This document shows positions 1,660-60,901 of a stretch of DNA of 64,000 nucleotides, in pieces (positions within the stretch are counted from its first letter, which is position 1; every line of letters starts with the position of its first letter). The position numbers were made by a program, and so were the translations under genes. The notes beneath the pieces are model-generated. The model saw nothing but the letters and a program-made list of their open reading frames with translations. It was not told the DNA's origin and ran no database searches. The stretch is from assembly GCA_963741295.1 (NCBI GenBank), contig CAVUHI010000001.1, positions 18,275 to 82,274 on the forward strand. The letters are read 5' to 3'. This DNA is from Candidatus Bathyarchaeota archaeon (GTDB lineage Archaea > Thermoproteota > Bathyarchaeia > Bathyarchaeales > Bathycorpusculaceae).

Positions 1660-1785
1660 ACTTAGAAAATTAAACCGTTCGACCAATTCTTTAGTTAATT
1701 TTTATTTGTTGGCGAAAGCTTGGAAATTTTTTGAATTAGATAGCGTTGGTAGGGTAGCGCAGAGTGTTCTTTACATTGAGTTCTG

Positions 1786-2047
1786 GAGTTAAAGTTGAAA
1801 GAAAAAAAAATCGTGGTTTAAAAAAATTGTCATTTTTCTTCTTCTAATCGACAGCGGTCTTTCAACAAAAACATGAGACTTCAGAAGCCTGCGATCTCTC
1901 CTGTCTTTTGTTAGAAGAAGAAAAACGGCTTTTTCCAACGGGAAAGTTTTCCTTCTTCTTTCAAAGACCATTTACTCTGCATTTTTCTATCTGAGAGAAG
2001 AAGACACCACACCATCACTTCTTCTTTCAGAATATTCTGCTGACTCT
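1786..2047. repeat. non-coding triple-hairpin element, copy 1
   Basis: 1786-1870 aligns directly to 59691-59770. 1883-2047 aligns to the reverse complement of ~59773-59952. Arms are GAAGAAG.../...CTTCTTC. Confidence 0.8.
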
Positions 2048-2170
2048 AACAGCAACTGTCTTTCCCGCTCAGTTAATCCAAGAAAACCAAAAGTTTCTGC
2101 TGATTTACTCTGAAAGTCAAGTTGTCAACAGCAGTCAAGGCAAATATTTTATTCTATCCTCAAACAGTAT

Positions 2171-37630: not shown

Positions 37631-37949
37631 AGCGGTGGACCACTGCGGTTTGACGTCCAGAATCCGTCTGAAGCCTCCAAACCCTACACTCTTACCCGCA
37701 CCCCCTTGAGCGCATAACGTCCAAACTTAGGTTGCTCTCTCCCGAGCCTAGCCAGGTTCGCCTGCTAAACGACGAAGTAACTTCCCTACGGAAGCCACCC
37801 ATCGACCGCCAGCCCCAAAGGACGGATAGTCACTGGTTCGGAAATGGAAGTTCAAGCGGCCACTGACGCCTCATCCGCAGATGTTAGCCCGTCATGTAGA
37901 GGATTTACGGTACAATGGACCCCTAACCCACCGCCTAAGATCCACCGCC
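37631..37949 (-). ncRNA. ffs: archaeal signal recognition particle (7S) RNA
   Basis: Terminal helix GGCGGTGGA/TCCACCGC, Alu UGUAC motif, helix 8 GCTAGGCTCGGGAGAGAGCAACC; TATA at ~37971-37980. Confidence 0.9.
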
Positions 37950-48551: not shown

Positions 48552-48629
48552 GGGTCCGTAGCTCAGTCAGGCTAGAGCATCGGACTCTTAATCCGAGGGT
48601 CGCGGGTTCAATTCCCGTCGGACCCGCCA
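48552..48629 (+). tRNA. tRNA-Lys(CTT), intronless, CCA encoded
   Basis: Acceptor GGGTCCG/CGGACCC, anticodon arm TCGGA-CTCTTAA-TCCGA, T-arm GGTTCAATT. Confidence 0.97.
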
Positions 48630-57353: not shown

Positions 57354-58273
57354 TGAATATTCTCCTTCACTAGTTTTAGGTAAGCGTCTTCTAGCGAGCT
57401 GCTTGTCACTGTAACGGTTTCGATGCGTCCTCCCGCTGCGATGATTGCGTTTATAATTTCAGGATTTTCTTCTTGTGGATTCACGATATCGATTGTAAGC
57501 TGGTTGCCCTCTTTGACTATATTCTTTAGCTGGAGTTTCTTCAGCGAATCGAGAATCGTTTCATTCACTTGTCTTAACTGAATCACTGTTTTTCTTCCGT
57601 GGACAGACCGTTCGAGTTCTTGAGGAGTCCCCACTGCCATGAGCTTGGTATTCAAGATACCAATCCTATCGCAGACCCGTTGCGCCTCATAGAGGTTGTG
57701 AGTGTTTAGAAAAATAGTCTTCTTCTCTTTCTTCAATTCAAGGATGAATTCTCTCACCGTTTTCGCGGACTCTGGGTCTAGATTCGCAGTCGGCTCGTCC
57801 ATGAAAATTATCTCAGGATCATGAATCAAGGCACGTGCTATCGCAAGCTTCTGTTTCATCCCCTTTGAGAACGCCCCGGCTAGAACATTTCTCTTCTCCC
57901 AGAGCCCAAGCAACTTGAGGAAGTATTCGTTGCTTTCTTTCTTTTGGGAGTCGGTCAGCCTGTACAGTGTTCCGTAGTAGTCTAGGTTCTCGTAGGCGGT
58001 GAGGGATTCGTACAGCCCAACATTGTCTGGGACGAGCCCAATGATCTTTCGGATCTTCAGAGCATCTTCGGGCCGGCCGATTTCATAATCACCAATTCGG
58101 GCGGTGCCGCTTGTCTTAGATATCAGGCAACAGAGCATTCTAACAGTGGTGGTCTTTCCCGCTCCGTTAGGTCCAAGAAAACCAAAAATTTCGCCCTGAT
58201 TTACCCTGAAAGTCAAGTTGTCAACCGCAGTCAGCTCCCCGAACTTCCTTGTAAGGTTCTCAGTCTCAATCAT
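57350..58273 (-). CDS. ABC exporter ATP-binding subunit
   Basis: GPNGAGKTT, FSKGMKQK and DEPT. Confidence 0.93.
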   Translation of the reverse strand: MIETENLTRKFGELTAVDNLTFRVNQGEIFGFLGPNGAGKTTTVRMLCCLISKTSGTARIGDYEIGRPEDALKIRKIIGLVPDNVGLYESLTAYENLDYYGTLYRLTDSQKKESNEYFLKLLGLWEKRNVLAGAFSKGMKQKLAIARALIHDPEIIFMDEPTANLDPESAKTVREFILELKKEKKTIFLNTHNLYEAQRVCDRIGILNTKLMAVGTPQELERSVHGRKTVIQLRQVNETILDSLKKLQLKNIVKEGNQLTIDIVNPQEENPEIINAIIAAGGRIETVTVTSSSLEDAYLKLVKENIQ

Positions 58274-58403
58274 GACAAGCCGCTACCAATCAGCTTCGTT
58301 CCCATAAATAAGCACAGGGGAACCTATATAGTCAGCCACATCAACGCCAACTAATGCTGCATATCAGTAACATACCCCTGCATTTGGTCAATTTTGCTAA
58401 ATA

Positions 58404-58580
58404 ATGGAAGAACACCTATGTGAAGTCTACCTATTTGACTCTTCCCTCAATTCTTCCTCTCGCATTCTCAATCATTCCTTCATAGTTGACGACAAAGGCA
58501 AACACCTATCCGCCCACACCAAAGAGGCAATATGGCAACGCATTCAACCCTTCATCAATCAACAACACGTCCACAATTAA
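58404..58580 (+). CDS. possible 58-aa hypothetical protein abutting the IS end
   Basis: Open frame MEEHLCEVY...HVHN*; no recognisable motif. Confidence 0.3.
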   Translation: MEEHLCEVYLFDSSLNSSSRILNHSFIVDDKGKHLSAHTKEAIWQRIQPFINQQHVHN

Positions 58581-59640
58581 GGGACAGTTCTTCACGGTGA
58601 AATACTTCTAAGGTTGATCATAAAACAGGCTGCTTATTCTTAAGCACCGAAAAACAAACCACCAACAACTTTCTAAGCAGCCGCAACTCTAGGAGTTTTC
58701 TTACCTCTCCTACCTGCTAAGCAACGGTACGACCGGCTAATCCAAGTATCATATTTGCTAACATGTGTAGAAGCACATTCCATCATGATTCAACGCAGCC
58801 ATCTACTGCCCTCTTTAGTTATGTTTCCATGACGAACCATGCCTCCTGATTGATAAGTGGAAGGCACCAACCCAGCATAGCTACAAAGCTTCTCAGCAAA
58901 CGGAAAACGACCGATATCGCCAATTTCACTCTTAACAAGAAGTGCAGAGTAATAGCCAATCCCCGGAACAGTCATCAACAGCCCAACATCTTCATCACCT
59001 TTGGCTTCCCTCTTAAGCTCATTAGATAACAGTCTGATTTCTTCACTTAAACCGTCGATAAGTCTGATATAAGATTCAACCGGAGTCAAATTGAGACCAT
59101 GAAGCCAAATCAACCCAGCCTTAGTCCACAATCCATGATCATCAGGCCACTTCAACCCTTGATAGGTTAGATAGCTCTTGATTTTCACTCGCAGTTTGAC
59201 TCTTTCTCTAACTAGGAAAGCTCTTCTGCGAACCTTCTCTCTCAAAGCACTTGTATCTTCATCTGGGACATAAGATAGGGGCAACCAATCCATCCTAAGC
59301 AACTGCGCAATAGCTTTAGAATCTACTTTATCGCTTTTAATTTTAGCCTCAGCAATTAACTTAGTCTTCCTAGGATGGGAAACTACCGCATCAAAACCTT
59401 CTTTCTTCAATTGTCGATAAAGAGGTGCAACTGCAGTGGAGGATTCCATGGCGACTTTTCCAACCTTGAACCGCGACAGGTAAGAAGCTACTTTCTCATT
59501 CTCCATTCTTGTTTGATCCACTATTTTTCCTTCAGAGTTCAAAATAGTCGCATAAGTGCTATCCTTATGCACATCCAACCCACAAACCAAGGCGCTCATA
59601 GTATGGCGTGAGCGCCCACGGCGTATAACACTTCCCATAC
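58581..59640 (-). mobile_element. IS110-family element; DEDD/Tnp20 recombinase frameshifted in its last ~60 codons
   Basis: GLDVHK, AMES, KSDKVDS, VPGIG, YAGLVPS..QSG and TKEGSRWLR; no terminal inverted repeats evident; ends approximate. Confidence 0.88.
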
Positions 59641-59690
59641 CATCAACAACAATTGAAAATGCAGTGTTGTTGTTCTTCTCTTAAGTTGCA

Positions 59691-59952
59691 GAGTTAAGTT
59701 GAAAGAAGAAAAAATCATTGAAAAATTGTCAATTTTTTCTTTTTCTAACCGATAGCAGTCATGCAACAAAACAGAGGCAACAGATACTCTGAAAGAAGAA
59801 GAAAAGACGGTGGCGCCACTTTCTTCTTCTTCTCTCAGTTAGAAAGGTGCAGAGTAAATAGTCTTCGAAAGAAGAAGAAGGACAACACTTTCCCCATAGG
59901 AAAGAACTGTTTTTTTTCTTTACAAAAAAGAAAGAGCGATCGCAGCTTTTCT
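59691..59952. repeat. non-coding triple-hairpin element, copy 2
   Basis: Homologous to 1786-2047 with the distal module inverted. Confidence 0.8.
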
Positions 59953-60901
59953 ACAGTCTACGGGGTTTCTGGAATGGTTGACTTTTTGGTTGGTCAGGGT
60001 TTGGTTTGGTTTCTGCTGTTAGGAGCTGTTTTAGGCGCAAGGCTAGTACGTCGCGGTCGTTGGGTTGCTGATGTGTCCATTGTTCACGGTATTCTCGGAA
60101 TTGCTGCCCTGTGATTTTGCCCTTTGTTTGCAGATCGCTAAGTAGCTTTACGAACGCTCTTAGTTCCAATTGTTCGTTGGTTACTACGTTTATGGTTTTT
60201 CCTTCTCCTGACGGGTTGGTTGTGGGTTTTTCGCTATCTGGAGGCGGATAAGTATTGTATAGGAAAACCGCAAAATACAAGGCATCCCAAGCTCGAGTTA
60301 ACGTTAAACTGTTTTTTGCTTTTAACAACTCATTGGTATAGTATTCATATTCTTGTCCAATTGAAAAAAATTTCGTTTGTCCGCTGGGGACATCAGCTAT
60401 TCGGTTAACAAAATGCCTCAGGTGTTGATTATTAAAAATCGGCAATACCGTTCCACTTTCATAATTGAAACAGAATATGATTTCTTTACCAAGCTGTTTG
60501 TCTTGCCCTAATCCACCTATCCTTTCCCAGAGAGCATCAACTTTTTGGGCTAAAGACTTTCGAGTGTCCACCGCAGCACGCAACAGGTTTTTGAACTCCC
60601 CGATCTGTAGTCGGGCGTTTCGGTAAACGTTGGAGCTGTTAAACGTGGAGCGACCAAGAGGCTTAAGGGAACCTTCTAAAAGACAGAAGAATTCGCCGAC
60701 TTCATCAGGATTTATCTTGAAGAGTTTTTCTGGATCCAAATATTCTATTGAGCGAAGATTTTCGGTGAAAGGATATTTTTGCCTAAATTCTTTAAGTAAT
60801 GCAAGCGCTCTATCGACTTCTGTACGGGTTACCTTGACTCTGTCGTATGCAGTTGCTTTTTCGAGCATTGAGTTACTTTGGGACATTTTTAACCATAGCA
60901 A
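59951..60901 (-). CDS. hypothetical protein
   Basis: 316-aa ORF with an HhH-like IGGLG segment. Confidence 0.7.
   Translation of the reverse strand: MLWLKMSQSNSMLEKATAYDRVKVTRTEVDRALALLKEFRQKYPFTENLRSIEYLDPEKLFKINPDEVGEFFCLLEGSLKPLGRSTFNSSNVYRNARLQIGEFKNLLRAAVDTRKSLAQKVDALWERIGGLGQDKQLGKEIIFCFNYESGTVLPIFNNQHLRHFVNRIADVPSGQTKFFSIGQEYEYYTNELLKAKNSLTLTRAWDALYFAVFLYNTYPPPDSEKPTTNPSGEGKTINVVTNEQLELRAFVKLLSDLQTKGKITGQQFREYREQWTHQQPNDRDVLALRLKQLLTAETKPNPDQPKSQPFQKPRRL

Follow-up and report, generated by a model that had tools for sequence, protein, structure and literature searches.

Positions 59641 to 59952 of the window (the whole analysed stretch of 64,000 nucleotides) hold a non-coding series of hairpins that adjoins an IS110-family recombinase gene and has a partly reversed counterpart some 58 kb away, near the window start. 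This raises the question of whether the hairpins belong to the insertion sequence (IS), move by themselves or come from elsewhere. The likeness of the two copies, described in the first-pass annotation, is confirmed by BLASTN, in which module A gives a direct alignment (78% across 108 nt, E = 5e-15) and module B an inverted one (74% across 175 nt, E = 2e-21), non-palindromic linkers included; both values stay the same with DUST masking. The two copies fold more stably than shuffled sequences (z = -4.76 and -3.06), and a search of Rfam finds no family matching either of them. The copy at 59641 (copy 2) consists of four units rather than three, because the IS has split its first unit, H0, leaving the left foot of this unit on the far side (Table 1). 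Nor is it a two-copy element: the genome of this window (G000) contains 61 such hairpins, and BLASTN of G000 finds closer relatives on contigs C22 (87%, E = 1e-73) and C9 (82%, E = 4e-67). The element is a four-unit array of a repeat family. Integron attC sites have a 5' core ending in AAC and a 3' core starting with GTT, and they occur as single sites between gene cassettes. This assignment was rejected, as H1 carries the two cores the other way round and no gene separates the units.

Table 1. Positions in the window of the hairpin units, the neighbouring IS and the parts of copy 1
Feature	Position	Strand	Remarks
H0, left foot	58403..58414		Severed by the IS; 2-bp core at its end; site intact at the orthologous G010 locus (L178)
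IS1111-type element, IS110 family	58415..59645	-	Sits in an arm of H0
Subterminal inverted repeats of the IS	58418-58428, 59628-59638		3 and 7 bp from the ends
Predicted seek/bridge RNA core	58495..58600	-	Guides vary with flanks in L006, L008, L009, L284 and L285; scaffold conserved
Predicted target guides	near 58587-58593 and 58560-58568	-	Within predicted RNA core
Predicted donor guides	near 58528-58538 and 58502-58511	-	Within predicted RNA core
DEDD recombinase gene	58634..59599	-	PF01548 (E = 2e-20), PF02371 (E = 2e-17); broken, stop after codon 271, more stops later
H0 unit	59644..59678		Arms (CAA)n/(TTG)n; corresponds to terminase allele coding EQQQ...CCCSS; IS target
H1 unit	59698..59749	+	Like allele coding KEEK...IFSSS; copy 1 version weakly matches L153 terminase gene (E = 0.007)
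H2 unit	59789..59838	+	Agrees in arms, loop and 3' flank with the terminase gene on viral contig L251 (81% across 57 nt, E = 3e-6)
H3 unit	59865..59921	+	Most decayed; inner GC stem in loop; copy 1 version weakly matches L153 (E = 0.002)
Copy 1	1748..2145	+	Insert of ~390 bp flanked by imperfect 8-bp direct repeats
Copy 1, H0 stub	1765-1778		Part of copy 1 insert
Copy 1, H1	1794-1848		Part of copy 1 insert
Copy 1, reversed H3	1911-1964		Part of copy 1 insert
Copy 1, reversed H2	1991-2030		Part of copy 1 insert
Copy 1, ABC gene fragment	2045-2137		~93 bp; from the ABC-ATPase gene adjoining copy 2
ABC-ATPase gene part, source for copy 1	58139..58233	-	85% over 95 nt, E = 4e-23

The IS does not belong to the array but is an insertion into its unit H0. 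Its boundaries are seen at the orthologous locus of G010, which keeps H0 unbroken, and in contigs of the public runs X1 and X2, which join 58407 to 59644, skipping exactly the IS. The subterminal repeats, located 7 and 3 bp from the ends as in IS1111 (7 bp on the left and 3 bp on the right; PMC11187229), and the layout with a short upstream end and a long downstream non-coding end assign it to the IS1111 type. The recombinase gene has a single copy in G000; its relatives have open frames of 347 to 371 aa, and close relatives of the IS are found in metagenome-assembled genomes of Bathyarchaeia or Bathyarchaeota (seven named records). The downstream end contains, in this order, a complement of the right half of the target, an identity to its left half and two donor matches, a sequence of parts that agrees with published IS1111 elements. 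Since the minimum-energy fold of this whole end is unremarkable compared to shuffles (z = 0.64), the assignment of the guide RNA is based on covariation with the flanks: the guides show small changes in L006, L284 and L285, fit a different target in L008, and fit both a different target and a different core in L009. The IS is a new archaeal member of IS1111, with a guide RNA predicted from the sequence. Known IS1111 examples with a seekRNA or bridge RNA include ISPa11, which targets REPs, and ISKpn4, which targets attC (PMC11187229, PMC11208160). Features shared with IS1111 are the 7/3-bp repeats, the downstream non-coding region, a repeated folded target, natural reprogramming among relatives and the top-strand guide preceding the bottom-strand one; what differs here is the archaeal host, the broken recombinase and a target palindrome that also occurs in a viral terminase gene.

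Nine distinct insertion sites were counted for this IS group, with a single IS end visible at L275, L281, L288 and L289. Five of them are in an H0-type arm, either in arrays (window/L014, L007 and L285) or in the viral gene (L006/L281 and L275). The remaining sites include two within arrays (L284 and L289), an unclear one (L288) and one outside any palindrome (L005). The earlier proposal of a preferred IS110 target is supported for the first unit, H0, where insertions into H0-type arms go together with matching guides; the proposal does not extend to the other units. At L006/L281 and L275, insertion of the IS1111-type element into the palindrome has disrupted the viral gene. Sister IS elements (L008, L024, L009 and L015) have other guides and other targets; L008 and L024 adjoin tRNA-like sequence, and the core of L009 changes along with its donor guide.

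Template switching is a model for the origin of inverted and composite inserts such as copy 1. Among the best 15 orthologous loci fetched (107 of the 120 genomes matched the query), the insert is present in 4 and its site is empty in 11. Block B is reversed in copy 1 of all four species that carry the insert and forward in copy 2 of the same species, where G010 lacks H1 and G132 lacks H2. The joints of copy 1 display short microhomologies, and each of the seven joint regions tested has at least 5 mismatches to both the IS target and the IS donor. Four public sequencing runs, which contain 5 to 10% of the sequence words, yield a sole opposite-strand joint, the one predicted by copy 1. Two RNA runs give no contig across 59720-59961, a result that speaks neither way. 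The idea of an invertible element, for which reads in both orientations of block B had been suggested as a check, finds no support here: the orientation is fixed per locus across four species, and the joints fit neither target nor donor. The description as MITE-like is partly apt, in that the repeats are dispersed and non-coding. MITEs have defined terminal inverted repeats and a target duplication; here there is an imperfect 8-bp repeat around copy 1, and 20 copies from genome G061 have ragged ends. Block B was most likely reversed long ago in one template switch, by which three pieces of the copy 2 locus were copied.

The hairpin family has a narrow phyletic distribution. The palindrome scan of G000 returns 61 hairpins, compared to 1, 1 and 2 in three shuffles; a control with reversed arm order gives 19 matches, not a number near zero, and we think that many of these span neighbouring units. 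Outside the terminase-gene remnants discussed below, 55 of the 61 hairpins form 29 clusters of one to four units. Their loops are mostly 13 to 24 nt long, and GTAG or GGAG is found at some of the palindrome feet but is not constant. A strict version of the pattern is found in 68 of the 120 genomes of the genus (control count, 0), with up to 94 overlapping matches in G061, and is missing from the other 52. In a class-wide draw, it is present in 5 of 201 genomes, all from the same family, and in none of the 173 genomes outside that family. The clusters occupy many intergenic sites and are not enriched between convergent genes (8 of the 29 are convergent and 8 divergent). A tRNA T-arm motif is found within 300 bp of 6 of the 29 clusters, versus approximately 2.5 expected, a modest link to integration sites. 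Between orthologous loci, arrays gain and lose whole units, and they diverge faster than their flanks (84 to 91% versus 95 to 97% identity).

Expansions with a genome-specific consensus are found in G061, G090 and G134. The one in G061 involves a composite element of approximately 250 to 300 bp with ragged ends (20 of 47 matches aligned), and its listed copies keep palindrome lengths of 37, 40 or 43 bp. This composite (L290 to L309) occurs in at least 40 places and consists of two palindromes and a conserved left part; the left part occurs without palindromes in G004 (L311). A comparison of its flank with the viral loci gives no match. G061 has the most matches of all genomes yet encodes only a distant terminase pair, with no match to the provirus capsid protein, so the repeats can spread without a cognate virus.

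Several palindromes of G000 are located, in frame, inside a gene for a protein of approximately 150 aa or its remnants, and this genome has 13 terS-like loci, most of them broken. Of 81 genomes of the genus, 52 have homologues of the gene, as do 57 viral contigs, where an alignment search gave 57 loci and a single-protein scan gave none. In G099, the gene lies between tail genes and a gene for a 482-aa large terminase (PHROG 2, E = 5e-38), within a full, intact provirus that has integrase, capsid and tail genes. The predicted structural model consists of an N-terminal three-helix (HTH) domain, a low-confidence linker (residues 56 to 65) and a helical core, and the palindrome encodes the predicted unstructured linker that follows the HTH. 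Small terminases (TerS) have the same plan, with an N-terminal HTH, a linker and a helical oligomerisation core (PMC9611059). Searches with this small protein against Pfam and PHROG show no family match, and a fold search with the model gives no significant one, with known small terminases ranked 6 to 8 at E values of about 0.4. Because these searches are not significant, its identity as TerS comes from its position before terL and its predicted domain plan, which make this assignment likely. In the same loci, the gene that follows terL (L081:17051-18490) encodes an ABC-ATPase with a weak acetyltransferase match, and many viral contigs end approximately 3.3 kb after terS, near the end of this gene. 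No long tape measure gene is recognised in the provirus; a 182-aa gene (L082:2612-3160) is found where one is expected.

The palindrome varies in concert with itself. Of 136 loci surveyed, 118 distinct segments were retained (two loci had no anchor and the others were duplicate or partial), and the palindrome was called present at a stem score of at least 8, a value reached in 88 of the 118. It is present in 72 of the 73 copies that have at least one of six provirus genes in the locus, compared to 16 of the 45 copies without any, among loci that differ in length. There are at least five arm types, encoding EQQQ/CCCS, EEEE/SSSS, EVVD/STTS, EVVV/TTTT and DDD/SSS. Arms pair with their own partners at a mean score of 11.4, compared to 7.0 for cross-pairs (29% of which reach 8 or more). 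As the encoded amino acids vary, the two arms vary jointly. Many alleles beat their synonymous shuffles at p ≤ 0.05; the CAA/TGT types are borderline, and many are non-significant (p = 0.03 to 0.11). Mismatches on the coding strand show no excess of wobble pairs (A-C, 14; G-T, 9). The viral contigs contain 83 pattern matches, several of them on the same contigs as the 57 homologue loci.

A signal with these properties has a known counterpart in bacteriophages. The pac site of P22 is located inside terS (PMC9611059), and pseudo-pac sites start generalized transduction in P22 and SaPIs (PMC6687093). As in the P22/Sf6 type, the presumed signal is found in the small gene before terL and has look-alikes over the host chromosome; here, however, it is an archaeal palindrome with co-changing triplet arms. 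On balance, the palindrome would seem to be a pac site or a part of it. How TerS reads its site is called unclear and controversial (PMC9611059). Ends of viral contigs at the palindrome were considered as packaging cuts and rejected: the two contigs in question end there because an IS end follows.

The resemblance between array units and the viral gene goes beyond the arms. Loops of 46 of the 54 units score better against gene loops than loop-shuffled controls do (p = 1.5e-8), a test that may partly reflect shared A-runs. Flanks of the arrays match the gene weakly (26 higher and 24 lower than the control), and intergenic units keep the reading-frame length no more often than by chance (27 of 67, p = 0.14). 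Tandem gene fragments with different alleles, two each on contigs C14 and C19 of G000 and three in L177, are the intermediates expected between a gene and an array. Taken as sequence evidence, these data make it very probable that the array units derive from the terminase gene. The overall reading that we prefer, with a probability of roughly one-half, is that the arrays are copied pac signals that would act as pseudo-pac sites on host DNA. Unlike the chance look-alikes described in P22 and SaPIs (PMC9611059, PMC6687093), they would be nearly faithful copies, with several alleles lined up in an array. Against this reading, the P22 pac site is described as asymmetric rather than palindromic (PMC9611059), the family and fold searches with the small protein are not significant, the intergenic units show no conservation of reading-frame length, and G061 has expanded its element next to only a distant terminase pair. 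That the arrays still start packaging is less likely than not.

A possible mechanism can be outlined as follows. The TerS ring would bind the two arms on double-stranded DNA and TerL would cut near the palindrome. Short pieces around the signal might be captured by microhomology repair, trimmed to units of 50 to 70 bp and spread by duplication and conversion as BIME-like arrays. Upon infection or induction, the arrays could divert to host DNA the terminases from several variants of the virus, and the misdirected packaging would waste capsids and transduce neighbouring genes. For the IS, a guide directed against this signal would open up numerous insertion sites, most of them harmless, and give access to proviruses.

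In one group of 22 rows, the palindrome is missing; these rows are terS-terL pairs whose loci show no virus gene. They form a single clade among the virus copies (SH-aLRT, 82, in a quick tree of 95 rows with the palindrome columns included), so that this group may represent one or two events, its members being kin rather than independent cases. Twenty of the 22 come from wide loci, where they are mostly intact and located among host genes; their large terminases keep the Walker A motif and mostly the C-terminal HDD motif. Such lone pairs are seen at several sites and in several genomes (L151, L152, L154 to L156, L158 to L163, L165 to L172 and L174 to L176), and G000 has a broken one (C6:156212-158074). 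Judging from their sequences, they are candidate domesticated terminases that might serve in anti-viral interference or in packaging of host DNA. The loss of the signal fits this idea, since with the signal retained a terminase that stays in the host would target the locus encoding it. A terS-terL pair that does have the palindrome is found among host genes in G014 (L083/L084, G014:C1:48876), with no other virus gene in the fetched flanks. TerL is found in 56 of 81 genomes and the provirus capsid protein, the one capsid family searched, in 33 of 81; some genomes encode several TerL and have no match to this capsid protein. A dispersed or split gene transfer agent of this capsid family finds no support, as TerL outnumbers the capsid gene and no such split is evident.

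Several other explanations of the arrays have to be weighed against copied pac signals. The units might derive from the terminase gene and nevertheless be neutral debris, that is, trimmed provirus remnants, passively copied and without present function. The mostly broken terS-like loci of G000, the faster divergence of arrays than flanks, the loss of whole units and the lack of matches in 52 of the 120 genomes agree with this. However, both arms persist where the loops differ, the listed G061 copies keep their discrete palindrome lengths, each array combines several different alleles instead of repeating one, and copy 1 persists in four species, which makes mere debris rather unlikely. An RNA-level role, in which the viral palindrome would terminate, attenuate or stabilise the late transcript and the arrays would act for the host as bidirectional terminators or stabilise its mRNAs, as REPs can, has in its favour the stable predicted folds, the pyrimidine-rich 3' arms on both strands, the inner stem of H3, which scores as terminator-like on both strands, and the location of several G061 copies after gene ends. 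It is nonetheless improbable, given the absence of a G-U excess on the coding strand, the size of the loops, the equal frequency of arrays between divergent and convergent genes, and the lone terminase pairs, which manage without the stem.

The alternating, BIME-like units, the large expansions in G061, G090 and G134, each with a consensus of its own, the GTAG or GGAG at some feet and the imperfect 8-bp repeat around copy 1 would also suit an independent selfish repeat of the REP or MITE kind, mobilised by a so far undetected enzyme, which entered the terminase gene in the distant past. With REPs and BIMEs (PMC2817692, PMC6006769), the arrays share extragenic palindromes in tens of copies, mosaic alternation, taxonomic restriction and use as a target by the IS110 family; in contrast to them, the arms are AT-rich and there is a counterpart inside a viral coding sequence. 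REPs are defined by a 5' GTAG or GTGG tetranucleotide and a loop of 2 to 5 nt (PMC6006769), whereas here the tetranucleotide is not constant and most loops are several times longer. No RAYT/Y1 HUH gene is found in G000 (75% complete), none of the 20 Y1 loci of relatives examined is flanked by hairpins, and the 61.8 kb around those 20 genes contain one weak hairpin. A classical REP/BIME was rejected on the tetranucleotide, loop length and RAYT, the mosaic, extragenic, multi-copy layout and the role as an IS target being in agreement. The viral gene has more arm types (including GTA, GTT and GAT) than most arrays, always in one place, and the ends of the G061 element are ragged, so that an independent selfish origin has only a slim chance. 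Finally, adjacency to the IS and the reversal of block B had led the first-pass annotation to suggest a bridge-RNA-like element, or a segment flipped by the recombinase. This is highly improbable: the hairpins are outside the IS (58415-59645), the guide segments that change with the target are at its far end (~58500-58595), each locus has a fixed orientation in four species with joints unlike target or donor, and the recombinase is broken here.

The terminase gene is a probable, traceable viral origin for this REP/BIME-like repeat family, in archaea. Its palindrome is a candidate pac signal recognisable by sequence alone, with a natural allele series of protein and site. Arrays that start packaging would be inherent hot spots of transduction, or decoys against viruses, in a lineage abundant in sediments, and the IS and its relatives provide a compact archaeal set of IS1111 guide RNAs with at least three natural target programmes. 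A more far-reaching version, which we regard as unlikely, sees the arrays as a non-CRISPR memory of the pac sites of a whole virus family: they would be terminase decoys that launch transduction of host DNA, next to domesticated signal-less terminase pairs and an RNA-guided IS reprogrammed to the same signal in arrays and virus. Tailed proviruses of Bathyarchaeia are in print (PMC11697101, PMC11705971, bioRxiv 10.1101/2023.08.24.554615), and Bathy-6 genomes are reported to commonly carry a siphovirus-like provirus that encodes a terminase and an integrase (PMC11697101, PMC11705971); main-text parts of the latter two reports do not mention the small-terminase palindrome, the arrays or the lone pairs. 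A literature search, with supplements and most subscription papers outside its scope, found no publication on any of the three.

Certain arrays start right after a duplicated tRNA 3' end (L123:1340-1750, L196, L113, L120, L111 and L121), and the one in L196 lies between a tRNA fragment and a full-length tRNA gene, an arrangement reminiscent of a very small integrated island. A decayed provirus end in G000 (C13:3016-6103, L049) has palindromes of three arm types, in a cluster that adjoins a broken integrase gene and a piece of the post-terL gene. In the window itself, a 316-aa open reading frame (59951-60901, minus strand) overlaps the right end of the array; it has no Pfam match, and the orthologous loci have conserved it. 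The phosphoenolpyruvate carboxykinase gene (PF00821) at 1-1282 is split into two frames, with a break near 540-570 that is due to a frameshift or an assembly error. The window also encodes an archaeal SRP RNA (37633-37947, minus strand) and a tRNA-Lys (48552-48626, plus strand).
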